Shown here: positions 6,569 through 35,120 of the stretch, piece after piece
How positions within the stretch are numbered: position 1 is the stretch's first letter
Layout of the letters: every line of letters starts with the position of its first letter
Assembly: GCA_042091225.1 (NCBI GenBank)
Contig: JBELHW010000005.1
Location: 3,712 to 67,711, forward strand
DNA length: 64,000 bases
Direction of reading: 5' to 3'
Origin: Cryomorphaceae bacterium
GTDB taxonomy: Bacteria; Bacteroidota; Bacteroidia; Flavobacteriales; UBA7312
Notes under the pieces: generated by a model
Told to the model about the DNA's origin: nothing
What the model saw: the letters and a program-made list of their open reading frames with translations, nothing else
Databases searched by the model: none
Made by a program: the position numbers and the translations under genes

Positions 6569-7590
6569 TGGAAATCATAGCAAGTCTAATTATTTCTTTT
6601 TTTATAACATTTTTAACTCTTCCGCTCATATTAATATTATCAAAAAGGTACTCAGAACTATTAAAGATTCCTAACAAGTTAGATTCTCACTCAACAGCAA
6701 CTCCGACCTATGGTGGTTTGTCCATTTTTTTTGGAATTCTTTTATCCTTATTTATACTTTTAAGAGTTGAAGATATCTATGGCCTTAAGTGGATAGTTGG
6801 TTCTTTACTAATCATTTTTGCTTTAGGTATTATTGATGACTCGATAACTCTCCGTCCTTCCAAGAAGTTTTTAGGGCAGTTAATCGCTATAAGTATTCTT
6901 GTTTTTTTCAATGATCTTAGGATCACTAATATGCAAGGGTTATTTACTATATATGAGTTGCCTTATTCTTTTAGTGTTCTGCTTACTATTTTAACAATGT
7001 TAGTTATCACAAATGCATATAATTTAATTGACGGAATTGATGGCTTGGCATCTTTAGTAGGGATTTTAGTTTCCGCTGTTTTTTTAATTTTCTTTTTTAT
7101 TAATGGAGACTATAACAATATAATTATTTTATTTGCTTTAATAGGCTCTCTAATTGCCTTTTTAAGATACAATTGGCCCCCGGCAAAAATTTTCATGGGA
7201 GATACAGGCTCGTTATTTATCGGTTTTATATTTTCTATAATAGCAATTCAATTTGTAGAAACAGAATTTAAGATAGAGTATTCTTGGTTTAAAATTAAAA
7301 CAGCAACATTGTCAATGGCAATTTTAGTGGTGCCTTTGCTCGATTTATTGAGAGTGTTTTTAGTTAGAATTTTCCATAAGAAGTCACCTTTTTCAGGAGA
7401 TAGAAATCACCTTCATCATTTATTAATAGATTTAGGTTTAACCCCTATTCGTACTTCATTTACTCTTTTGCTTTTTAATATTATAGTAATTCTAACGGCT
7501 TTGTTCTTTAGCTTTTTAGACATTAATTATGTACTTCTTTTGATTTGTGGCATTTGCTTATTATTTTTATTAATTATTAGTAAAAAATAA
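6568..7590 (+). CDS. glycosyltransferase family 4 polyprenyl-phosphate sugar-1-phosphate transferase (WecA/MraY-like)
   Basis: About 10-TM protein with the motifs IIDD, NAYNLIDGIDGLA and IFMGDTGSLFIGF. Its ATG overlaps the gmd stop (taATG). Confidence 0.85.
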   Translation: MEIIASLIISFFITFLTLPLILILSKRYSELLKIPNKLDSHSTATPTYGGLSIFFGILLSLFILLRVEDIYGLKWIVGSLLIIFALGIIDDSITLRPSKKFLGQLIAISILVFFNDLRITNMQGLFTIYELPYSFSVLLTILTMLVITNAYNLIDGIDGLASLVGILVSAVFLIFFFINGDYNNIIILFALIGSLIAFLRYNWPPAKIFMGDTGSLFIGFIFSIIAIQFVETEFKIEYSWFKIKTATLSMAILVVPLLDLLRVFLVRIFHKKSPFSGDRNHLHHLLIDLGLTPIRTSFTLLLFNIIVILTALFFSFLDINYVLLLICGICLLFLLIISKK

Positions 7591-9171
7591 ATGAAAAAAT
7601 TTTTAATTATTATTTGTTGGATTATTACTCCAACTTTAGTTTTTAGTCAAAATAGTTTCACATTTAATCATTCTTGGCATAACGATTTTCAAAAAGAATT
7701 TCATGCCATAGACTCTAGTCACCATACTTCTATTAAAGCCCATTTTAATCTAGATCAAAACGTTAACTCATCAATTCAGCCATTTTCTTTTAAGTCACCA
7801 TTGCTAAATAGAATGTTAAATTCTGATGCGTTGCGTCTCGAAACAGACGATTTCGATTTAATTATAAATCCACTTTTTCATTTCGAAACAGGAAATTCCG
7901 ATTCTGCTAGTCGATATATTAATACAAGAGCTTTTGAAGTAAAAGGAAGAGTTGGCACCAAGATTTCTTTTTACTCTTCTTTTTATGAAAACCAGGCTGT
8001 TTTTCCAGACTACTTAGAAGATGCTATTGTAAACAACTATTTTGTTGTTCCTGGACAAGGGTATTCGAAATGGGGGAATCATGATATCAATCCTGATTTC
8101 GATTTTGCTATGTCAAATGGGCTATTGAGCTATCAGGCTGATAAATATTTTAATCTTCAATTTGGTCATGGAAAAAACTTTATTGGAGATGGTTATCGTT
8201 CTCTTTTGCTTTCAGATAATTCATTTAATTATCCTTTTTTTAAAATAACAACTAATTTTTGGAAAGTAAAGTATGTCAATATTTTCTCTGTTTTACAAGA
8301 CCTAAGGCCTGAGTATGAAATCGAAAATACATTTAGAAAAAAATATAGTACAACACACTATTTGAGTATAAACATAACAAAGAAATGGAATTTAGGATTA
8401 TTCGAGACTATTATTTGGGAGCAGTCTGAAACAGGAAGAGGGTTTGATATAAATTATTTAAACCCTGTTATTTTTTATAGACCAGTTGAATTTTCATTAG
8501 GTTCTGCATCAGGAAATGCACTTATTGGCTTAAATACTAAGTATAAATTAAATAACTCAGCTCATTTGTATGGTCAATTATTATTAGACGAATTCAGATT
8601 TAGTGAGCTAAAAGCAGCAAAAGGATGGTGGGCAAACAAATATAGTTATCAGCTAGGAGCTAAGTGGTTTGATGCCTTAGGCGTTAAAAACCTTACTCTA
8701 CAGTCAGAATATAACTTCTCTCGCCCTTTCACCTATTCTCATTTGAATCCTTTACAAAGTTATACTCATTATAATCAGGCCTTAGCTCATCCATTGGGGG
8801 CAAGTTTTATGGAGTCAGTTTCTTTTTTGAGATACAGATATAAAAGATGGGCTATCGATTCTAAAATCATTTTTGCAAAACATGGAGGGAATATTCCAGG
8901 CGATCCTACTAACTACGGAAACGATATTTTAACGTCATATGCTGAAGGAGATAGATTAGAGTATGGAAATGAGGTCGCTCAAGGAAATACTACAAATTTA
9001 TCTATTGTTGACCTCAGATTAGCTTACATTTTAAATCCAACAACCAATATGAAAATTGAGATTGGAATAAGTAAACGAGAATCAAAATCTTTGTATTTAC
9101 CAGAAAGTAAAACCAACTATTTGTTTTTATCTTTCAAAACTGATATTAATAATTATTATTATGACTTTTAA
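7591..9171 (+). CDS. secreted/outer-membrane protein of unknown function (possibly Wzi/RemB-like capsule-associated OMP)
   Basis: Signal peptide MKKFLIIICWIITPTLVFSQ. The sequence is rich in aromatic/alternating beta-strand-like segments and has a C-terminal aromatic residue (..YYYDF). It abuts the GT4 gene with no gap. The family assignment is a guess. Confidence 0.55.
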   Translation: MKKFLIIICWIITPTLVFSQNSFTFNHSWHNDFQKEFHAIDSSHHTSIKAHFNLDQNVNSSIQPFSFKSPLLNRMLNSDALRLETDDFDLIINPLFHFETGNSDSASRYINTRAFEVKGRVGTKISFYSSFYENQAVFPDYLEDAIVNNYFVVPGQGYSKWGNHDINPDFDFAMSNGLLSYQADKYFNLQFGHGKNFIGDGYRSLLLSDNSFNYPFFKITTNFWKVKYVNIFSVLQDLRPEYEIENTFRKKYSTTHYLSINITKKWNLGLFETIIWEQSETGRGFDINYLNPVIFYRPVEFSLGSASGNALIGLNTKYKLNNSAHLYGQLLLDEFRFSELKAAKGWWANKYSYQLGAKWFDALGVKNLTLQSEYNFSRPFTYSHLNPLQSYTHYNQALAHPLGASFMESVSFLRYRYKRWAIDSKIIFAKHGGNIPGDPTNYGNDILTSYAEGDRLEYGNEVAQGNTTNLSIVDLRLAYILNPTTNMKIEIGISKRESKSLYLPESKTNYLFLSFKTDINNYYYDF

Positions 9172-25027: not shown

Positions 25028-25060
25028 TTAAGTATTTTCTAATTAATTTTGCACTCCCAA

Positions 25061-25663
25061 ATGAAAAATAAACAAAATATAATTGAACAATCTTTGTTGC
25101 TTTTTATGAAAAGAGGGGTTCGATCTGTCAATATGGACGAAGTTTCTTCTCATCTAGGAATATCAAAAAAAACGCTTTACTTACATGTTGATAATAAGTC
25201 TGATTTGGTTTGCCAAGCTTTTAAGTTTTTTTGTTATAAGTTATCTCATTCTTTAACTCTTATTGTAAAAGAAGAAAAAAATGCAATAGATGAGTTGTAT
25301 GAAATGGACGAGCAAATTTTCTTTCATTTAAAATCAATGCATATTTCAATTGTGAGCGAATTGAAAAAATATTATTTAGAAAGTTGGGAATTGATAGAAG
25401 ACTTTAAAAAGAATTTTTTATTAAATCTTATCGAAACCAACATAACTAAAGGAATGAAACAAAAATTATATAGACAGGATTTAAATCCGAGTATGATATC
25501 AAAAATATTTATAAATAGAAGCGAAACCTTAGTAGATGGGGAGCTTTTTAATTATAGAGAGTTTGATTTGAAAGATGTTTTAAAAGAGCATAGAACTTAC
25601 CACACTAGAGGAATTGCTTCCATAGAAGGGATTAAGCATTTAGAAGAAAATATAAAATCATGA
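25061..25663 (+). CDS. TetR/AcrR family transcriptional regulator
   Basis: N-terminal HTH IIEQSLLLFMKRGVRSVNMDEVSSHLGISKKTLYLHV. I prefer ATG 25061 over the track's TTG 25049. It overlaps the tolC-like start by 4 nt. Confidence 0.8.
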   Translation: MKNKQNIIEQSLLLFMKRGVRSVNMDEVSSHLGISKKTLYLHVDNKSDLVCQAFKFFCYKLSHSLTLIVKEEKNAIDELYEMDEQIFFHLKSMHISIVSELKKYYLESWELIEDFKKNFLLNLIETNITKGMKQKLYRQDLNPSMISKIFINRSETLVDGELFNYREFDLKDVLKEHRTYHTRGIASIEGIKHLEENIKS

Positions 25664-26973
25664 TGAGAATAATTATTTTAATGTTTTTTGTTATTCCGCT
25701 TTTTGGTCAACAACAATTATCAGTACAACAGGCAGTAGAATTAGGCTTACAAAATAACAATGCAGTTAAAAATGCAAAGTTAGATGTGAAATACGCTAAG
25801 AAACAAGTTTTAGAAACAATAGCTATTGGGCTTCCTAAAATAAATGGAGAAGTTAATTGGCAGCATTTTTTAGAAATACCTACAACTCTAGTTCCTAGTG
25901 CTATGTTCAACCCCAATGCATCCGATGACGAATTTGCAGAGTTACAATTCGGAACTAGCCATAACGCTACTTCAACTTTGTCTGGTTCTCAATTAATTTT
26001 TGATGGTAGTTATATTGTTGGCTTAAGAGCTTCTTCAATCTTCAAACAATTATCTATTAAGTCTTTAGAGTTGACCAAACAGCAAGTACAAGATAGTATA
26101 GCGGCAATGTATTATAACGTATTGGTAGCCCAAGACAGAAATGAATTTTTAAAATTAATTTATGAAATTCATGTTGATATTCTAGACGAAATAAATGCCA
26201 AGTATGAGCAAGGGATGGTAGAAGATATTGATGTTGACAGAATGTCAATCACTCTTTCAAATATGAAAACGCAATATGAGAACATGAATAGGGTAACAGA
26301 AATGTCTCATGCAATGTTAAAGTTATTAATTGGTGTTTCCATAGATGAAAAATTATTATTGACAGATAGTTTGTCGGGGCTTTTAAAAGCAAGCAAAAGT
26401 GTTTTAATACAAGAACCCGTTATTGAAAATAGAATTGAATATCAATTAGCTCAAACACAAGTTAAAGTAAATAAACTGGATGTAAAAAGATATCAATCTG
26501 TTTATTTACCAAGTATTGTAGCCTTCGGATCTTATAGTAAAAATGCTATGCGAAATGAATTTAACTTTACTGAAGATGGTAAATGGTATCCTTCTCAATT
26601 AGTTGGAATAAAAGCAACAATGAATATTTTTGACGGATTTTCCACCAGAACTAGAGTGCAAAAAGCAAAAATAAAGCTCGAGCAATCTAAAAACGATTTT
26701 CAACTGATGGAACAGTCGCTTAAATTAGAGCATATTGCAGCTCAATCTTCTTTTCTAACGGCAATTAGTAATCAAGAAATTCGTCAAAATAATTTAGACT
26801 TAAGTAAAAAGATTTACAGCAAAACAATGGTAAAATATAGAGAAGGACTAGTAAGTAGCATGGAATTGTCTCAGGCAGGTGCTGACTATATGAATGCGTT
26901 TTCTCAAAATTCTCAAGCTATTTATAGCTTATTAAAAGCAAAAACAAATTATCAACGAACAATAGGAAATTAA
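25660..26973 (+). CDS. TolC family outer-membrane efflux protein
   Basis: Signal peptide plus LSVQQAVELGLQNNNAVKNAKLDV. It has the duplicated coiled-coil/beta architecture typical of OEP family proteins. Confidence 0.85.
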   Translation: MMRIIILMFFVIPLFGQQQLSVQQAVELGLQNNNAVKNAKLDVKYAKKQVLETIAIGLPKINGEVNWQHFLEIPTTLVPSAMFNPNASDDEFAELQFGTSHNATSTLSGSQLIFDGSYIVGLRASSIFKQLSIKSLELTKQQVQDSIAAMYYNVLVAQDRNEFLKLIYEIHVDILDEINAKYEQGMVEDIDVDRMSITLSNMKTQYENMNRVTEMSHAMLKLLIGVSIDEKLLLTDSLSGLLKASKSVLIQEPVIENRIEYQLAQTQVKVNKLDVKRYQSVYLPSIVAFGSYSKNAMRNEFNFTEDGKWYPSQLVGIKATMNIFDGFSTRTRVQKAKIKLEQSKNDFQLMEQSLKLEHIAAQSSFLTAISNQEIRQNNLDLSKKIYSKTMVKYREGLVSSMELSQAGADYMNAFSQNSQAIYSLLKAKTNYQRTIGN

Positions 26974-26974
26974 G

Positions 26975-28090
26975 ATGAAATTATTAAAAATCAGTTTATT
27001 ATCATTAATTATCATTTTTGCCGCTTGTGGTGAAAAAGAAAGTGATCTTGATAAAAAGAAAACAGAGCTTAAATCTTTGAAAGAACAGTTTTCACAATTG
27101 AGTTCAAAAATCGAAATTTTACAAGAAGAACTAGCTTCGTTAGATACCACTTCCGATGGAGGTGTTCCTGTTAGTATCTATGAAGTAGAGCTTAGCACCT
27201 TTTTACATTATATAGAGCAGCCAGGAATAGTTTCCTCTAAAGAAAATGTAATGGTAAGTGCTGAAATGCCTGGCGTAGTAAAACAAATATTAGTTAAAGA
27301 AGGATCTTGGGTTGCCAAAGGCCAAGCAATTTTACAACTAGATGCATCTGTACTATCTAGTCAAGTGGAAGAATTAAAAGCTTCTGTTGAATTATTAAAA
27401 ACAACTTTTGACAGACAAACAAACCTATGGAATCAAGGAATCGGTTCAGAAATACAATACCTTCAGTCCAAGAATCAATATTTCTCTATACAAAATAAGC
27501 TAGAAGCTGCACAAGCGCAACTAGATAAACTAGAGATTACTGCTCCAATAAATGGAAGGTTAGATGAAATATTTCTTAACGCAGGCGAATATGCAAATCC
27601 TGGAATGCCAATTTTAAGGCTAGTAAATTCTAAAAAATTACAAGTTGAAGCGGACGTTGCTGAGAGGCATGCCAATAAAATAAATGACAAGGATACTGTC
27701 AGTATAAGTTTTAATTCTTTAGGAATAGAACAAAAAGCACCTATATCTTTTATAGGTCAAGTTATAAATTCTGAAAACCGAACTTTTAAGTTAAAGATTG
27801 ACATTCAAAACAAAGATGGGTACGTAAAACCTAACGCAGTTGCTTCCTTAAAAATTCAAGATTTTTATGCTGACAATGCTGTAAAGCTACCTTCTAAAGT
27901 GATTAAAAAAGATATGAGAGGAAACTTTGTTTTTGTAGTAAATGGTGTCAGCGCACAGAAAAAGTACATCGAAACCGGACTGTCACACAACCAATATACT
28001 CATGTTCTTTCAGGAATTGACAAAGGAGATAAGGTAATCATTAACGGATTTAATGGAGTGTCCAACGGAAGCAAAATTGATATAAAGTAA
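26975..28090 (+). CDS. efflux RND transporter periplasmic adaptor subunit
   Basis: Lipobox IIFAAC. A coiled-coil hairpin is flanked by lipoyl/beta-barrel motifs (GQAILQLD, ITAPINGRL). Confidence 0.85.
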   Translation: MKLLKISLLSLIIIFAACGEKESDLDKKKTELKSLKEQFSQLSSKIEILQEELASLDTTSDGGVPVSIYEVELSTFLHYIEQPGIVSSKENVMVSAEMPGVVKQILVKEGSWVAKGQAILQLDASVLSSQVEELKASVELLKTTFDRQTNLWNQGIGSEIQYLQSKNQYFSIQNKLEAAQAQLDKLEITAPINGRLDEIFLNAGEYANPGMPILRLVNSKKLQVEADVAERHANKINDKDTVSISFNSLGIEQKAPISFIGQVINSENRTFKLKIDIQNKDGYVKPNAVASLKIQDFYADNAVKLPSKVIKKDMRGNFVFVVNGVSAQKKYIETGLSHNQYTHVLSGIDKGDKVIINGFNGVSNGSKIDIK

Positions 28091-28097
28091 AACCCAT

Positions 28098-31000
28098 ATG
28101 GCTAATCGAAGTTTTAAATTAACAAACTTGTCTTTGAAAAATAAGACAACTATATTTATTTTAACTTTTCTTCTTACAATTTTTGGACTAGTTTCTTACA
28201 AGTCCATGCCTAAGTCTTTGTATCCTGATATTGTCATGCCGACAATTATGGTTCAAACTGTATACCCTGGAAATTCTCCAGCAGATATTGAAAATTTAAT
28301 TACAAGACCAATTGAAAAAGAGTTAAAATCGATTAAAGGAATCAAAAAACTTACTTCTTCTTCTTTACAAGATAATTCTTCTATAATTGTCGAATTTAAC
28401 ACAGATATAGAGCTAAAAACTGCCTTACAAGATGTAAAAGACGGAGTAGATAAGGCAAAAGGAGATTTACCTTCAGATTTAGATTTAGATCCTATAGTAA
28501 TGGATATAGATTTTTCTGAATTCCCAATTCTTAATATCAATCTATCTGGTGATTTTAGTTTAGATGAACTTAAAGTATACGCCGAATACCTTCAGGATGA
28601 AATAGAAACATTTGGAGAAATTTCTAAAGTAGAAATTACTGGATTATTAAATAAAGAAGTTTTAATTGAAGCCGATCTGCATTTGATGGAAAGTAGTAAG
28701 ATTAGCTTTCGAGATATTGAAGACGCTGTCCGATTTGAAAATATATCTATTGCTGCTGGTGATGTTTTGATAAGCGATTTGAGAAGAACAGTCCGAACTA
28801 GTGCAGAATTTAAATCTGCTAAAGAGATTGGCAACATCATTGTTAAGCACGAAAATGGAAACATAGTTTACCTAAAAGATATTGCTAAGGTTACTAACGG
28901 CTACGAAGAAAGAGAAAGCTTTGCTAGGCTAGATTCTGACCCTGTAGTGTCGTTGAATGTAGTAAAGAAAGCAGGTCAAAATTTATTAGTCGCTACTGAT
29001 AAAATAATGGCTCTTCTTGCTCAATCAAAATCATCTAATCAGATACCAAAAAACTTAAATATTTCTATTACAAACGATCAGTCGGAGCAGACTAGAGATC
29101 AGTTAAGTAACTTAGAAAACAGTATTATTTTCGGAGTTATATTAGTTGTTCTTACATTGTTATTCTTCTTAGGGCTCCGAAACGCTTTATTTGTTGGACT
29201 AGCGATTCCACTGTCTATGTTTATCAGTTTTGTTGTTTTTGGTGGTATGGGTACCACAATGAATATGGTAGTTTTATTTGCATTAATTCTAGCTTTAGGA
29301 ATGCTCGTAGATAACGCTATTGTTGTTATTGAAAATATTGACAGACTATTTAATAAAGAAGGATTATCTAGAATGGAAGCAGCAAAAAAAGGAGTTGGAG
29401 AAATAGCTATCCCTATTATATCTTCTACTGCAACTACATTAGCAGCTTTTTTTCCTTTACTTTTTTGGGATGACTTAATGGGCGAGTTTATGGGTTATAT
29501 TCCAATGACTCTTATCATTGTTTTGGGTTCGTCTTTATTTGTAGCCCTTGTTATTAATCCAGTTTTTGCAGCTACATTTATACAAAAGGAAACAAGATTA
29601 AAACCACAAAAAAAGAAAATTCAGAAAACAGCTATTGTTTTAGCAGTATTATCTGTTTTCTTGTATATAATTGGAAGTAAGCTTTTAGGATCTTTGGCAC
29701 TGGTTTTTAGTTTACTTTCTTTAGTTAATGGGTTTTATTTTACCCCTTGGTCTTATTGGTTTCAAGATGTATTATTAGTTCGATTAGAGAAAAAGTATTC
29801 TTCTATTTTAAACTGGGCTTTTAACGGAAGACAACCAATTAAACTATTAGCAGGTACATTTGGATTACTTATTTTTTCAATTGTATTTTTTGCATTAATG
29901 AAGCCAAATGTTGAGTTTTTCCCTGTTAATGAACCAAAATACATTAACGTATTTTTGGAGCTTCCTACTGGAACCGATGTAAATTATACCGATTCAGTTT
30001 CTAAATTAGTAGAGAAAAAAATAGAAAATATTTTAGAGCCTTATCAATCGGCCGTATCTTCAGTATTAACAAATGTAGGTTCCGGTACTGCTGATCCCAA
30101 TGAAATGGGAGGAAGCATGGGGATTACTCCTAATAAAGCTAGGATTACAATAAATTTTCTAGAGTATCGCTTCAGAAACGGAGTTGTAACAGGTGACGTA
30201 ATGAAAGAATTGTCTGCTAACCTTTCAGGCATGCCAGGAGTAGAAGTTACTGTTGATAAAAATAGAGATGGACCTCCAATGGGTAGGCCAATAAATATTG
30301 AAATTTCAGGGGAAGATTTTGATCAACTACTTGCTATTTCTGAAGAGGTTCAGAATATTATCGATAATGAAAAAATTGATGGAATAGAAGGGCTAAAAGT
30401 AGACTTAGAGCTAAATAAAGCTGAGTTACTGGTAAATATTGATAGAGATATGACCAGAAGAATGGGAGTCTCTACATCTCAAGTGGGCGCTACTATTCGT
30501 ACAGCATTATTCGGAAAAGAGCTTTCTAAATTTAAAGACGGAGAAGATGAATATCCTATTGTACTTCGACTTGCAGATAAATACAGATACAACGTATCTT
30601 CTCTTATGAATCAGAGAATTACTTTTAGAAGCCAATCAAGCGGAAAAATAATGCAAATTCCTGTTTCTGCAGTAGCAGATTATAGCTATAATAACACTTA
30701 TGGTTCGGTAAACAGAAAAGATTTAAAACGACAAGTGACTATTTACTCTAATGTTGTTGAAGGATATAATGAGTCAATAATAAATAGTCAAATTAAAAAA
30801 GTTTTAGAAAATTATAATTTACCCGCAGGATATAATTTACAATTTACAGGCAAACAGCAAGAACAAGAACAATCTCAGGCATTTTTGTCAAAAGCATTAA
30901 TGATTGCAATAGCTTTAATTACTATTATTTTAGTATCCCAGTTTAACTCTGTGTTCAAGCCAATTATAATTATAATGACAGTTTTGTTTAGCACTATTGG

Positions 31001-31481
31001 AGTCTTTTTAGGCTTAGCAATATTCAATATGGACTTTGTTATAATTATGACTGGTATTGGTATTGTTTCTTTAGCTGGTATAGTTGTAAACAATGCTATT
31101 GTTTTAATCGACTATATCGATTTATTAAAGTCGAGAAAACGCATCGAATTAGGACTAGAAGAAAACGTGACACTCGATAGAAAAGATGCTATAGAATGTA
31201 TTAAAAAAGGTGGTGAGAAAAGATTGCGACCAGTACTATTAACTGCTATTACTACTGTATTAGGTCTTTTTCCTTTAGCTACAGGAATGAATATTAATTT
31301 TTCAAAGCTTTTAACTGAACTTAATCCCGAAATATTTTTTGGTGGGGATAATGCATTATTTTGGGGTCCAATGGCGTGGACAGTTATTTTTGGATTAACC
31401 TTCGCTACTTTTCTTACATTAGTTATTGTTCCTGTCATGTATCTATTGTCCGATAAGTTGAGTAATAAATTAAAGTTTTAA
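28098..31481 (+). CDS. efflux RND transporter permease (AcrB/HAE1-like)
   Basis: 1127 aa, 12 TM with two large periplasmic loops. Conserved GMLVDNAIVVIENI and GIVVNNAIVLIDYI motifs. Confidence 0.92.
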   Translation: MANRSFKLTNLSLKNKTTIFILTFLLTIFGLVSYKSMPKSLYPDIVMPTIMVQTVYPGNSPADIENLITRPIEKELKSIKGIKKLTSSSLQDNSSIIVEFNTDIELKTALQDVKDGVDKAKGDLPSDLDLDPIVMDIDFSEFPILNINLSGDFSLDELKVYAEYLQDEIETFGEISKVEITGLLNKEVLIEADLHLMESSKISFRDIEDAVRFENISIAAGDVLISDLRRTVRTSAEFKSAKEIGNIIVKHENGNIVYLKDIAKVTNGYEERESFARLDSDPVVSLNVVKKAGQNLLVATDKIMALLAQSKSSNQIPKNLNISITNDQSEQTRDQLSNLENSIIFGVILVVLTLLFFLGLRNALFVGLAIPLSMFISFVVFGGMGTTMNMVVLFALILALGMLVDNAIVVIENIDRLFNKEGLSRMEAAKKGVGEIAIPIISSTATTLAAFFPLLFWDDLMGEFMGYIPMTLIIVLGSSLFVALVINPVFAATFIQKETRLKPQKKKIQKTAIVLAVLSVFLYIIGSKLLGSLALVFSLLSLVNGFYFTPWSYWFQDVLLVRLEKKYSSILNWAFNGRQPIKLLAGTFGLLIFSIVFFALMKPNVEFFPVNEPKYINVFLELPTGTDVNYTDSVSKLVEKKIENILEPYQSAVSSVLTNVGSGTADPNEMGGSMGITPNKARITINFLEYRFRNGVVTGDVMKELSANLSGMPGVEVTVDKNRDGPPMGRPINIEISGEDFDQLLAISEEVQNIIDNEKIDGIEGLKVDLELNKAELLVNIDRDMTRRMGVSTSQVGATIRTALFGKELSKFKDGEDEYPIVLRLADKYRYNVSSLMNQRITFRSQSSGKIMQIPVSAVADYSYNNTYGSVNRKDLKRQVTIYSNVVEGYNESIINSQIKKVLENYNLPAGYNLQFTGKQQEQEQSQAFLSKALMIAIALITIILVSQFNSVFKPIIIIMTVLFSTIGVFLGLAIFNMDFVIIMTGIGIVSLAGIVVNNAIVLIDYIDLLKSRKRIELGLEENVTLDRKDAIECIKKGGEKRLRPVLLTAITTVLGLFPLATGMNINFSKLLTELNPEIFFGGDNALFWGPMAWTVIFGLTFATFLTLVIVPVMYLLSDKLSNKLKF

Positions 31482-33481: not shown

Positions 33482-33484
33482 AAA

Positions 33485-33510
33485 AAAGCTTTCAATTTGA
33501 AGGCTTTTTT
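33485..33510. terminator. bidirectional rho-independent terminator between dxs and the convergent 149-aa gene
   Basis: aaagctttc / gaaggcttt form a 9-bp stem (one G-U pair) with a 5-nt loop. An A7 run lies upstream and a T6 run downstream, so either strand reads hairpin + U-tract. The 3' half ttgaaggctttttt is directly duplicated at 33512-33525. Confidence 0.55.
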
Positions 33511-33526
33511 ATTGAAGGCTTTTTTG

Positions 33527-33976
33527 TTATTCTTCATCTTTAACTATTCTTTTATTTTTTGTTAGAAGATAATAAACTCCACTTATTGTATAAGCTAGTA
33601 TTAATGACTGCCATAAATATTTCATAAATTCTGATTTATATAAAACTTCATTAGAGCTAAAGTGGACTAAATACATTTGTCCAACAATTAAGAAATAAGA
33701 AATACATAAACCTAAATTGATAATTAGCATTGGTCTATTTATTTTAACAGGTGTAAATTCTTTTCTCCGAGCTAACTCTATTTTTCGAGTAAAAGCAAGA
33801 AGAAAAGCAAGACCACCTCCTTGAATCAATGAAAACAATGCCTTAGTTAAAACTTCATTTTTACACATAAAACTCTTAGTTTCAAAATCAAGTAAACTAA
33901 TTGTACCCGCGAAAAATATCATAGAACAAGCTAAGCCATGAAGTATGATGTACTTGAACATTTTTCTTTGTCTCAT
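33527..33976 (-). CDS. 4-TM membrane protein, unknown function
   Basis: 149 aa with four hydrophobic segments and a basic loop (ELARRKEF). It is the last gene of a 3-gene minus-strand set. I recognised no family. Confidence 0.5.
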   Translation of the reverse strand: MRQRKMFKYIILHGLACSMIFFAGTISLLDFETKSFMCKNEVLTKALFSLIQGGGLAFLLAFTRKIELARRKEFTPVKINRPMLIINLGLCISYFLIVGQMYLVHFSSNEVLYKSEFMKYLWQSLILAYTISGVYYLLTKNKRIVKDEE

Positions 33977-33988
33977 AGGTTTGTTTTT

Positions 33989-34315
33989 TTATTGGATACA
34001 GCCACTTGAGCTACCCCATCCTGTTTCTCCTCCTTTTATTAAAGAAGCTGTTACCGCACTGTAAACAGTAGCAGGGATAACCCCTAATGGCCCAACTATT
34101 GGCACAAAAATTCCGGCAACAGCCCAACCTACCATTCCTAAACCTGCACCAAGACCATCAGCCCTTATTATTTCTTTGTGTGACCCAGAAACAGCTCCTG
34201 GAACAATATCAATATTATTATCGCTTAAGAACTGGTCTCCATTACCAAGCCCTCCTAATTCTTCTGGCAACCAAAATTGTGAAGAGTAACGTATTGTTTC
34301 TAAAATTCCAAGCAA
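33989..34315 (-). CDS. Gly/Ala/Pro-rich hydrophobic protein (glycine-zipper-like), unknown function
   Basis: 108 aa if TTG 34315 is the start. There is no in-frame ATG/GTG before the upstream stop at 34364-34366. The core is GLGAGLGMVGWAVAGIFVPIVGPLGVIPATVYSAVTASLIKGGETGWGSSSGCIQ. The only internal ATG would give a 47-aa peptide. The region is locally GC-rich because of Gly/Ala/Pro codons. Confidence 0.45.
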   Translation of the reverse strand: MLGILETIRYSSQFWLPEELGGLGNGDQFLSDNNIDIVPGAVSGSHKEIIRADGLGAGLGMVGWAVAGIFVPIVGPLGVIPATVYSAVTASLIKGGETGWGSSSGCIQ

Positions 34316-34334
34316 TACATGTCTGTCATCTCCA

Positions 34335-34748
34335 TCAACATTTGATTTTATAAGATAGTTGGTTTAATTCTCTGTCAAATACGTCATAATGACTTAACTC
34401 ATCTACCAAACGGTTTAACTCATGAAAGTAAATTACATTTGAAATTGATAAATAGGTTGAAATGGTTTGAAAATCTTCCATACTCGATTTGCTGCATAAT
34501 TTATCAAAAATATCTTCTTTTTGTTGAATAGTGAGTTCTAAATCTAATTTTAATAACACTTCTTTTACTGATAATTCTTGATTTTCATAATGAAGGGCAA
34601 TTGCTTCTTCTAAATATTGATTGTGTAATTTTCCTAATTCTGCAGCTCTAAAACCTGTAATAGTATTTTCAGGTTTCTCACAACTAGATAAAGTAACTGC
34701 TATTCCTACTAAGGCAAGGAATAAACTTCCGTAAATAAAATTTTTCAT
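34335..34748 (-). CDS. lipoprotein, unknown function (predicted helical)
   Basis: Signal/lipobox LALVGIAVTLSSC-EKP. 137 aa. I recognised no family. Confidence 0.55.
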   Translation of the reverse strand: MKNFIYGSLFLALVGIAVTLSSCEKPENTITGFRAAELGKLHNQYLEEAIALHYENQELSVKEVLLKLDLELTIQQKEDIFDKLCSKSSMEDFQTISTYLSISNVIYFHELNRLVDELSHYDVFDRELNQLSYKIKC

Positions 34749-34806
34749 GATTTTATAAGTTTAGTTAATTAAATTTATACAAATTAGTATAATTTAGTTA
34801 GCACGA

Positions 34807-34828
34807 ACAACCGCATATATGCGGTTGT
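34807..34828. promoter_or_regulatory. 22-bp perfect palindrome ACAACCGCATA|TATGCGGTTGT, candidate operator
   Basis: Read directly from the sequence. It lies in the 123-bp divergent intergenic region, 44 nt upstream of the XRE-family gene ATG and 59 nt upstream of the lipoprotein ATG. It is the most GC-rich element in an AT-rich spacer and no U-tract follows on either strand. Confidence 0.45.
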
Positions 34829-34871
34829 GGGTATGATAAAATAGTGTTCTTTTTATTTTAAATGAATAGTC

Positions 34872-35120
34872 ATGAAAAAACCATTTATAGAAATAGGCTT
34901 AACCCTAAAGAACATACGCTTATTAGCTGGATATAAAAGTTATGCTGATTTTGCTTGGGATAACCAATTAGACAAAACTCAATATTGGCGCATGGAAAAC
35001 GGTACTAACTTTACTTTAGCATCTTTAAATAAAGTGTTACAAATACATCAATTATCTTTTGTAGAATTTTTTGAAATGGCAGAGAAAGGCAAAGCTATTT
35101 CAACTCAAAAGTTTCCATAA
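34872..35120 (+). CDS. XRE-family helix-turn-helix transcriptional regulator
   Basis: 82 aa. [60 protein letters not shown] fits the HTH_3/Cro-C1 pattern. Its 3' end overlaps the accC 3' end by 26 nt. Confidence 0.7.

Follow-up and report, generated by a model that had tools for sequence, protein, structure and literature searches.

A frameshifted lipoprotein gene and its membrane-protein partner between dxs and accC of a Cryomorphaceae bacterium: a candidate toxin/immunity cassette with a C-protein-like regulator

Introduction

A small gene module is located between the housekeeping genes dxs and accC in a 64,000-nucleotide stretch of DNA from a Cryomorphaceae bacterium (contig JBELHW010000005.1 of assembly GCA_042091225.1); this whole 64-kb stretch is called the window below. 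The module interval spans positions 33527-35120. An original prediction, made from the sequence of this stretch, had described an orphan module of four small genes and had compared it to toxin/immunity cassettes. The analysis presented here shows that two of the four open reading frames (ORFs) belong to one gene. The module therefore has three genes, which code for a regulator of the XRE family, a lipoprotein of approximately 250 amino acids (aa) and a small membrane protein. The lipoprotein gene is split by a frameshift. Among the explanations considered, the proposed toxin/immunity function is the best one; it is unproven, and its chances seem to us about even.

Results

Two neighbouring ORFs are halves of one lipoprotein gene

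The 137-aa and 108-aa ORFs were compared to P0002, which is the best match among the proteins of the family described below. The 137-aa ORF aligns with residues 1-149 of this protein (38% identity, E 2e-26) and the 108-aa ORF with residues 165-270 (54% identity, E 3e-25). Because both ORFs align in order to the same protein, they correspond to colinear halves that lie in different reading frames. The frame of the 108-aa ORF is open upstream of its TTG codon up to a TAA at 34364-34366 and offers no earlier start codon. In the close relative L110/L111, the orthologue P0025 has 248 aa and the middle of its gene is uninterrupted; the 137-aa fragment shares 73% amino-acid identity with it. By means of a DNA alignment with L110/L111, a net 5-nucleotide (nt) deletion was located in the window near 34340-34353. 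The site reads ...TCTAATAAAATAAAATTAAATGTTGATGG in L110 and ...TCTTATAAAATCAAATGTTGATGG in the window. When the frame was shifted in silico by a single base at 34346, one uninterrupted ORF of 252 codons was obtained. Judged by these alignments, the two ORFs are the halves of a single lipoprotein gene of about 250 aa.

Ten metagenome contigs, assembled independently of each other from runs of the series ERR9649xxx, ERR12177xxx and ERR12652xxx, contain the split, and 9 of the 10 are 100% identical to the window. An assembly error is thus excluded as the cause of the frameshift. As the C-terminal part is cut off, the intact product is probably not made in this genome, and this copy of the gene is probably dead, i.e. 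a pseudogene. The orthologue of L110 has a 1-nt insertion of its own in the signal-peptide region (L110 216-300, corresponding to window 34660-34748). For P0025, the usual MKNLLYG start is out of frame in consequence of this insertion, and a short M-E-L-F-S-L-P-L-V-G-I-T-F-T-A-C signal remains, which is devoid of a basic N-region. The insertion in L110 is independent of the deletion in the window and represents another lesion, or a variant, of the lipoprotein gene.

It is improbable that the split is functional. In that case, either termination-reinitiation at the TTG would yield the 108-aa fragment as a small membrane peptide rich in Gly, much as in the original prediction, or a +1 slip on the A-run 34346-34349 would restore the full-length protein. 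Such a function would agree with the lack of further stops in either half, with the location of the TTG 19 nt past the upstream stop codon, and with the fixation of the split in every sampled contig of the lineage. Furthermore, tRNA-Lys could slip by +1 on the upstream A4 run (AAA to AAA), where the one-base correction described above restores the 252-codon ORF. However, every homologue has a signal peptide, which a separate C-terminal fragment would not possess, and the TTG is the sole start codon of this fragment. With respect to slippage, no frameshift-stimulating element is evident, and in the original frame the A-run is followed by a frequently used codon. The synonymous difference (pS) to L110 is 0.08 and indicates a young tract, so that the lack of further lesions is expected even for a pseudogene. 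The ratio of nonsynonymous to synonymous substitution rates (dN/dS) of approximately 0.7 likewise argues against a functional split.

The features of the locus are compiled in Table 1. The coordinates and lengths of all four ORFs, the 19-nt and 12-nt gaps and the 123-bp divergent spacer of the original prediction were recomputed and are exact. The same holds for the 26-nt overlap of the XRE gene with accC, the duplicated half-site and the 22-bp palindrome.

Table 1. Features of the dxs-accC interval (window coordinates)
Feature	Position	Strand	Basis or remark
Terminator-like hairpin, bidirectional	33482-33525		Flanked by the convergent genes dxs and 4-TM; inverted repeats I6 and I11
149-aa membrane protein ("4-TM"), putative immunity or partner protein	33527-33976	-	Two fused units; alternative start Met6 gives 144 aa
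Lipoprotein gene, one gene split by a frameshift, probable pseudogene	33989-34748	-	Colinearity with single-gene homologues
C-terminal fragment, 108 aa, TTG as only start codon	33989-34315	-	End of helical domain, ELGG-x-G motif, Gly/Ala-rich hydrophobic hairpin
N-terminal fragment, 137 aa	34335-34748	-	Lipoprotein signal peptide, lipobox LSSC, most of helical domain
Frameshift site, net 5-nt deletion relative to the intact orthologue	34340-34353	-	DNA alignment with L110/L111
22-bp perfect palindrome, probable operator	34807-34828		Uniqueness in the window, conservation in relatives
82-aa XRE-family regulator, C-protein-like	34872-35120	+	Divergent from the lipoprotein gene; PADLOC and PDB matches

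The lipoprotein belongs to a rare family of Bacteroidota

In a word-indexed homology search, the 108-aa ORF matched only itself. An exhaustive phmmer search with the same query identified 18 clusters at E<=1e-3 among 1.84 billion representative proteins. The matches cover the last ~100 residues of proteins of 240-270 aa, except for a few shorter entries (115-215 aa), some of which are visibly truncated. The full-length homologues are encoded by single genes and consist of 238-279 aa. Most of them possess an N-terminal lipoprotein signal and a helical region with the motif G-x-L-H-N-x-Y-L, as does the 137-aa ORF of the window. Searches with a profile of the N-domain or with the C-terminal fragment returned only proteins of the same architecture. 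A metagenome locus scan with a sub-alignment of the family yielded only 3 loci.

The window ORF starts with MKNFIYGSLFLALVGIAVTLSSC and contains a lipobox that matches the pattern [LVI][ASTVI][GAS]C; the Cys of this lipobox is nearly invariant across 21 family sequences. Also conserved are the H-N pair and the motif S-A-x-F-W-x-P-x-E-L-G-G-S-G-x-G. The C-terminus of the family contains an A-D-G-x-G-A-G-x-G-M-x-G-W...G-P-x-G stretch of ~40 residues that is free of charged residues. In the last 70 residues, Gly accounts for 14-33%; there are small-xxx-small runs (ADGLGAGLG and others) and few strict GxxxG repeats. In the 108-aa ORF, residues ~52-92 form the Gly/Ala-rich hydrophobic helical hairpin. 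The maximum Kyte-Doolittle hydropathy of this ORF, taken over 19 residues, is 2.05, compared to a family range of 0.95-2.08. These values are borderline; their range includes the value of a SlyB sequence (1.51), so that Sec export is plausible. An AlphaFold2 model of P0020, which was based on 21 sequences, is all-helical (pLDDT 81.5, pTM 0.77). Its C-terminal two-helix hairpin, formed by helices 213-240 and 247-266, is predicted with confidence.

Surface-exposed lipoproteins of Bacteroidota carry the export signal C-X-K-(D/E)2-X right after the lipidated Cys (PMC5080379). Most family members have a Lys at position +3, which in many of them is followed by acidic residues; the C-E-K-P-E of the window matches the signal imperfectly. 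Few members, namely P0004 (CSKEEN), P0007 (CNKDEM) and L107 (CKKDEP), contain the full K-(D/E)2 motif.

The family has no significant match in the libraries that were searched. Scans of all four window ORFs against Pfam, NCBIfam, PADLOC and PHROGs gave nothing significant except the C-protein match of the XRE protein. The same was true for 10 full-length homologues in Pfam and NCBIfam, and for two homologues in PADLOC and PHROGs. Among the Gly-zipper families of Pfam, none matched the window ORFs at E<=1 and none the 10 full-length homologues at E<=0.1. The lipoprotein had no significant sequence match in the PDB and no significant Foldseek match in the PDB or BFVD; in the PDB, the best Foldseek E-value was 0.79 and no colicin was among the matches listed. 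The ELGG sequence was considered as the cleavage site of a double-glycine leader. This interpretation was rejected: the spacing of hydrophobic and acidic residues before the GG deviates from the leader consensus, and a lipoprotein signal is present. To judge from its sequences, the family is a real, rare and unnamed one of Bacteroidota. The original prediction had recognised no family except for the helix-turn-helix regulator. This holds in so far as the lipoprotein and the membrane protein have no significant match to a named family; the regulator can be characterised further, as shown below.

A small membrane protein is encoded downstream in every family locus

In all 15 distinct family loci with downstream DNA, an ORF of 58-103 aa with two hydrophobic segments is located 3' of the lipoprotein gene. 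A basic C-terminal tail is often present. The gap between the two genes usually comprises 4-20 nt; in one case there is an 8-nt overlap and in another case the distance is 320 nt. The number of copies varies. L103 has three partner genes in tandem, and L095 has two after the lipoprotein gene and a third one further on. The 149-aa protein of the window consists of two fused units of ~70 aa, each with two hydrophobic segments. Its halves match the single 68-aa and 75-aa ORFs of L095/L094 (E 3e-10 and 1e-5) and each other (28% identity, E 0.001). The complete protein is 94% identical to a 144-aa ORF of L110. Five of the downstream membrane ORFs were compared to Pfam and two to PHROGs, and no significant match was found.

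The cassette occurs in different genomic neighbourhoods. These are accC/dxs, GlyRS/DPP-IV, a dienoyl-CoA-reductase-like ORF together with a RuvB-like ORF, a TonB-dependent receptor, and QRPTase. In L098, a contig of the NCBI assembly GCA_023422675.1, a tyrosine integrase-like ORF (L098 1-877) lies 560 nt upstream of the cassette. This assignment was made by visual inspection of the HxLRHxxAT...Y motif region at its C-terminus. In L098, the cassette may be mobile.

The cassettes of L091 (7102-7698) and L095 (~7250-7843 and 8319-8921) additionally contain one or two lipoproteins of ~198-200 aa. At least one of them contains a CPEC...GFPT motif and is weakly similar to thioredoxins (Pfam Thioredoxin_2, E 2e-4). 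In L095, a further ORF with two hydrophobic segments lies before each of these genes. The family lipoprotein of L091/L095 ends in Gly-Cys-Cys, whereas those of the window and of L110, which have no gene for a ~200-aa lipoprotein, end in a single Cys. The ~200-aa lipoprotein may be a thiol-disulfide accessory factor.

The regulator resembles C proteins and is preceded by a conserved palindrome

The 82-aa XRE protein resembles the controller (C) proteins of restriction-modification systems. It matches the PADLOC model Control_protein (E 1.1e-5, positions 10-72 of 79). Residues 8-72 match structures of the C.Esp1396I family in the PDB (3clc and 4f8d, E 2.5e-5 to 8e-4), and a match to Pfam HTH_31 is weak. 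Restriction-modification genes were found neither in the module nor in the orthologous loci. In L091, L095, L103 and L111, orthologues of the XRE gene occupy the same position, divergent from the lipoprotein gene. Distant members of the family lack this regulator.

The 22-bp palindrome ACAACCGCATATATGCGGTTGT is located 43 bp upstream of the ATG of the XRE gene. It is the only perfect palindrome of the window with arms of at least 8 nt; according to shuffled sequences, 0.06 perfect palindromes with arms of at least 11 nt are expected per 64 kb. It is retained in four of the four other lineages for which this region is available, i.e. L091, L095, L103 and L110/L111. It is identical in L110/L111 and reads ACAACCGCATAAATGCGATTGT in L103. 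The conserved core is ACAACC-N10-GGTTG and is embedded in spacers that have otherwise diverged. The variation observed in the relatives is not compensatory, and a protein operator thus fits better than an RNA hairpin. A terminator was rejected for the same reason and because no T-run follows the palindrome. Given its uniqueness and conservation, the palindrome probably serves as operator of the C-like regulator.

It is very improbable that the module is the remnant of a phage lysis region. The lipoprotein would then be similar to a unimolecular spanin, the small membrane ORFs with their basic tails would resemble class II holins, and the XRE protein would be a phage-type repressor. A lipobox combined with a C-terminal hydrophobic region, partners of 58-83 aa with Lys/Arg-rich C-termini and the integrase-like ORF beside the L098 cassette could be interpreted in this way, as could weak matches of the XRE protein to repressor families of PHROGs (E 0.02-0.03). 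However, an endolysin or other phage gene was present in 0 of 15 loci, and the lipoprotein and membrane ORFs have no significant match in PHROGs (best E 0.03-0.09). The predicted structure is a compact helical domain of 225 residues with a two-helix hairpin and not that of an extended, periplasm-spanning protein. Moreover, both Flavobacteriales-like and Bacteroidales lineages have retained the pair in the chromosome as a cassette of two genes.

The module is an old and fast-evolving resident of the accC-dxs interval

A synteny comparison of the interval gave both possible outcomes. In the Cryomorphaceae metagenome-assembled genome L012, the site is empty and dxs and accC are 47 nt apart. In 80 dxs neighbourhoods of genome representatives, no homologue of any module protein was found. 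In contrast, three related lineages (L091/L092, L095 and L110/L111) carry the module between accC and dxs as well. Contrary to what had been supposed, it is therefore not an orphan.

Both borders had been taken for scars of insertion. At the first border, the 26-nt overlap of the XRE gene with accC is also found in L095. At the other border, the hairpin next to dxs has a predicted RNA folding energy of -15.9 kcal/mol (z = -3.9), and it contains a 15-nt tandem duplication of its 3' arm, such that the half-site TTGAAGGCTTTTTT occurs twice (33497-33510 and 33512-33525). The strain L001, which differs by 4 SNPs across the 2.1 kb compared, lacks one copy. The duplication is a polymorphism within the population and no insertion scar. 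Given the shared overlap, the polymorphic duplication and the common site in relatives, the borders are not scars of a fresh insertion. The module was acquired before the lineages L091/L092, L095, L110/L111 and that of the window diverged, and is an old, fast-evolving accessory module.

Compared to L095, the flanking proteins are 95% (accC), 98% (fabH) and 90% (plsX) identical. The corresponding values of the module are 37% and 47% for the lipoprotein halves, 52% for the XRE protein and 29% for the membrane unit. Compared to L110/L111, the locus is a mosaic. The dxs region is ~81% identical (pS 0.70), the XRE region ~70% (pS 0.55) and the N-terminal half of the lipoprotein gene ~85% (pS 0.19). 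The region coding for the C-terminal half of the lipoprotein lies together with the 4-TM gene in the segment 33506-34304; here, the identity is 91-99% with L111 and ~93-98% with L110, and pS is 0.07-0.08. This tenfold drop in synonymous difference indicates that the segment was recently exchanged between the lineages of the window and of L110/L111. With L110 as reference, the two lipoprotein halves have dN/dS values of 0.68 and 0.73. The ratio is 0.45 in the 4-TM gene and 0.24 in the XRE gene, compared to 0.03 in dxs.

The frameshift at 34340-34353 coincides with the upstream edge of this tract of ~95% identity common to L110/L111. The 5-nt deletion may have arisen at, or come in with, a recombination junction.

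In L091 only, a 140-aa ORF with a GIY-YIG domain and a C-terminal (F)(G/D)SAQPPEK repeat is located between accC and the XRE gene (L091 5116-5538). It is a further sign that accessory genes accumulate in the accC-dxs interval.

Rfam and tRNA scans of the window found nothing. A sigma-70 promoter scan, with a model that is ill-suited to Bacteroidota promoters, gave no excess of sites over shuffled sequence (13 compared to 9.3 expected). Outside of the module and directly upstream of dxs, the window contains an operon for a TetR regulator, an outer-membrane factor, a membrane-fusion protein and an RND transporter (25049-31481). The Pfam labels of these genes were taken from the identical contig L001, and the operon is next to dxs in L091, too.

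Discussion

A toxin/immunity cassette is the favoured interpretation

We favour the interpretation that the module is a lipoprotein toxin/immunity cassette under the control of a C-like protein, the toxin gene of which is dead in this genome. The case for and the case against it are in our view about equally strong. In this cassette, the C-terminal hairpin of the ~250-aa lipoprotein would be a membrane-inserting element that stays folded into the helical domain until a target membrane is reached. The small partner would reside in the inner membrane and neutralise the hairpin there, and would in this way protect the producer and its kin. In the organism studied here, two partner units are duplicated and fused, which gives four hydrophobic segments. 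By binding to the ACAACC-N10-GGTTG palindrome, the XRE protein would keep the operon under tight control. With its lipoprotein gene inactivated by the 5-nt deletion, the organism would be a non-producer that retains immunity.

Several observations support this interpretation. The lipoprotein gene is invariantly paired with an ORF for a two-segment membrane protein, which in turn forms arrays or, in the window, a fusion. The cassette is patchily distributed, is inserted at different sites and diverges fast. The hairpin region was transferred jointly with the membrane gene, and the controller is of a type that is typical of dangerous cargo. In two lineages, different frame-changing indels hit the lipoprotein gene while the membrane gene is intact. 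These features fit a housekeeping role in the envelope poorly. The original idea of a toxin/immunity module has thus gained circumstantial support, whereas the anatomy on which it was built was misread: what had been taken for a small, secreted protein rich in Gly is in fact the C-terminal portion of a much larger lipoprotein.

Other observations weigh against a toxin. No homology links the lipoprotein or the membrane protein to a known toxin/immunity family in Pfam, NCBIfam, PADLOC, PHROGs, the PDB sequences, or the PDB and BFVD sets searched with Foldseek. Classic polymorphic toxins show the opposite of the pattern seen in this lipoprotein, where identity is higher in the C-terminal half (47-54%) than in the N-terminal half (37-38%). 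For the short genes, dN/dS and pS were computed from few substitutions (6-14 each), and the mosaic was derived from a single comparison lineage. The raised dN/dS values could also be explained by mere decay of a pseudogene. Finally, lipoproteins with a glycine zipper can also have structural or stress-related roles, as in the case of SlyB.

The last point leads to an alternative that we regard as rather unlikely but consider more seriously than the two discussed above. The lipoprotein would be a SlyB/Pcp-like glycine-zipper protein located in a membrane of the producer itself; the small partner with its two segments would assist its assembly or anchoring, the XRE protein would act as a stress switch, and no killing would take place. 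The combination of a lipobox with a Gly-rich, moderately hydrophobic segment is in line with this role. By the measure used above, the hydropathy of a SlyB sequence is 1.51 and lies inside the family range. The missing toxin homology agrees with it as well, and so do the frame-changing indels in two lineages, which show no sign of harm and suggest that the gene is dispensable. However, the Gly-zipper families of Pfam are unmatched, and with 18 clusters the distribution is extremely patchy. The insertion sites vary between lineages, and one copy adjoins the integrase-like ORF. Neither a partner copy number that ranges from one to three, nor a divergence far above that of the flanking genes combined with a recent recombination tract, nor a C-protein-type controller, of the kind typically found with genes whose expression is dangerous, would be expected of such a protein.

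A more specific version of the toxin/immunity interpretation can be put forward tentatively, and we rate it as possible but not probable. It describes a Bacteroidota bacteriocin of an unrecognised kind. This would be a pore former that is exported by the lipoprotein pathway, is tethered to the surface or borne by vesicles, and has a fold without detectable relative in the libraries searched. Its Gly-rich C-terminal hairpin would kill, and an immunity protein of ~70 aa with two hydrophobic segments would protect. In one clade, a C protein would provide the timing. Homologous recombination at a housekeeping locus would carry the segment with the killing domain and the immunity gene from one species to another, and the genome studied here would be an immunity-only survivor.

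If the toxin/immunity interpretation is correct, these lipoproteins form a new family, possibly with a new fold, of antibacterial proteins that act on membranes and occur in Flavobacteriales and Bacteroidales. The ordinary lipoprotein pathway would take the place of a dedicated secretion system, and a controller in the style of restriction-modification systems would have been recruited to another kind of dangerous cargo. The family also offers a natural experiment. P0020, P0021 and P0002 are intact, P0025 is a signal-peptide variant, and the copy in the window is frameshifted; all of them retain the membrane partner. Whatever the function is, two annotated "hypothetical proteins" of this locus are one broken gene, and this correction holds regardless.

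Comparison with known systems

C proteins such as C.Esp1396I share with the regulator a length of ~80 aa, the XRE fold class and a palindrome upstream of the own gene. Their operators are paired C-boxes, whereas a single 22-bp palindrome is found here. In addition, the module contains no restriction or methylase gene, and the putative cargo is an operon for a lipoprotein and a membrane protein.

Pore-forming colicins such as A, E1, Ia and N contain an all-helical domain of ~200 residues with a hydrophobic hairpin that is buried among amphipathic helices, and their immunity proteins are small polytopic proteins of the inner membrane. If the P0020 model is correct, the module resembles them in having an all-helical domain with a hydrophobic hairpin and a neighbouring gene for a small, presumably inner-membrane protein. 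However, the hairpin of the family is Gly-rich and located at the extreme C-terminus, and the protein has a lipoprotein signal in place of receptor and translocation domains. The module has neither a lysis gene nor an SOS box, and Pfam Colicin (PF01024) matched neither the window ORFs nor the homologues.

SlyB and Pcp have in common with the family the N-terminal lipobox and a Gly-rich segment of similar hydropathy. In contrast, the large helical domain with its C-terminal hairpin distinguishes the family from them, and an obligatory membrane partner, patchiness and fast evolution are not features of SlyB.

The SitA toxins of myxobacteria have enzymatic C-terminal domains of the nuclease type and depend on TraAB exchange. 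The family differs by its hydrophobic hairpin and its membrane partner, and no similarity to SitA is detectable. The concept is nevertheless comparable: SitA proteins are lipoprotein toxins delivered by outer-membrane exchange, with a lipoprotein signal, a cognate immunity gene directly downstream and mobile, polymorphic loci (PMC5562445). A downstream partner is also shared with polymorphic toxin systems (PMC3482391); their pattern of a conserved N-terminus and a variable C-terminus is reversed here, the C-terminal half being more conserved.

Of the known systems, the Cdz system of Caulobacter and, in terms of architecture, the pore-forming colicins come nearest to the module, but it could be assigned to neither. 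The Cdz system consists of the glycine-zipper bacteriocins CdzC and CdzD and the small transmembrane immunity protein CdzI (PMC5380434). CdzC and CdzD comprise 84-86 aa and are exported by a dedicated type I secretion system, whereas the protein studied here has ~250 aa, a large helical domain and the signal of the Sec/lipoprotein pathway. It is no small precursor with a type I leader, sequence similarity to Cdz is not detectable, and none of the 15 family loci contains Cdz-type secretion genes (ABC transporter, membrane-fusion protein). Common to both systems are a Gly-rich small-xxx-small element that is possibly cell-associated, a small multi-pass membrane protein alongside, and a small accessory locus of patchy distribution.

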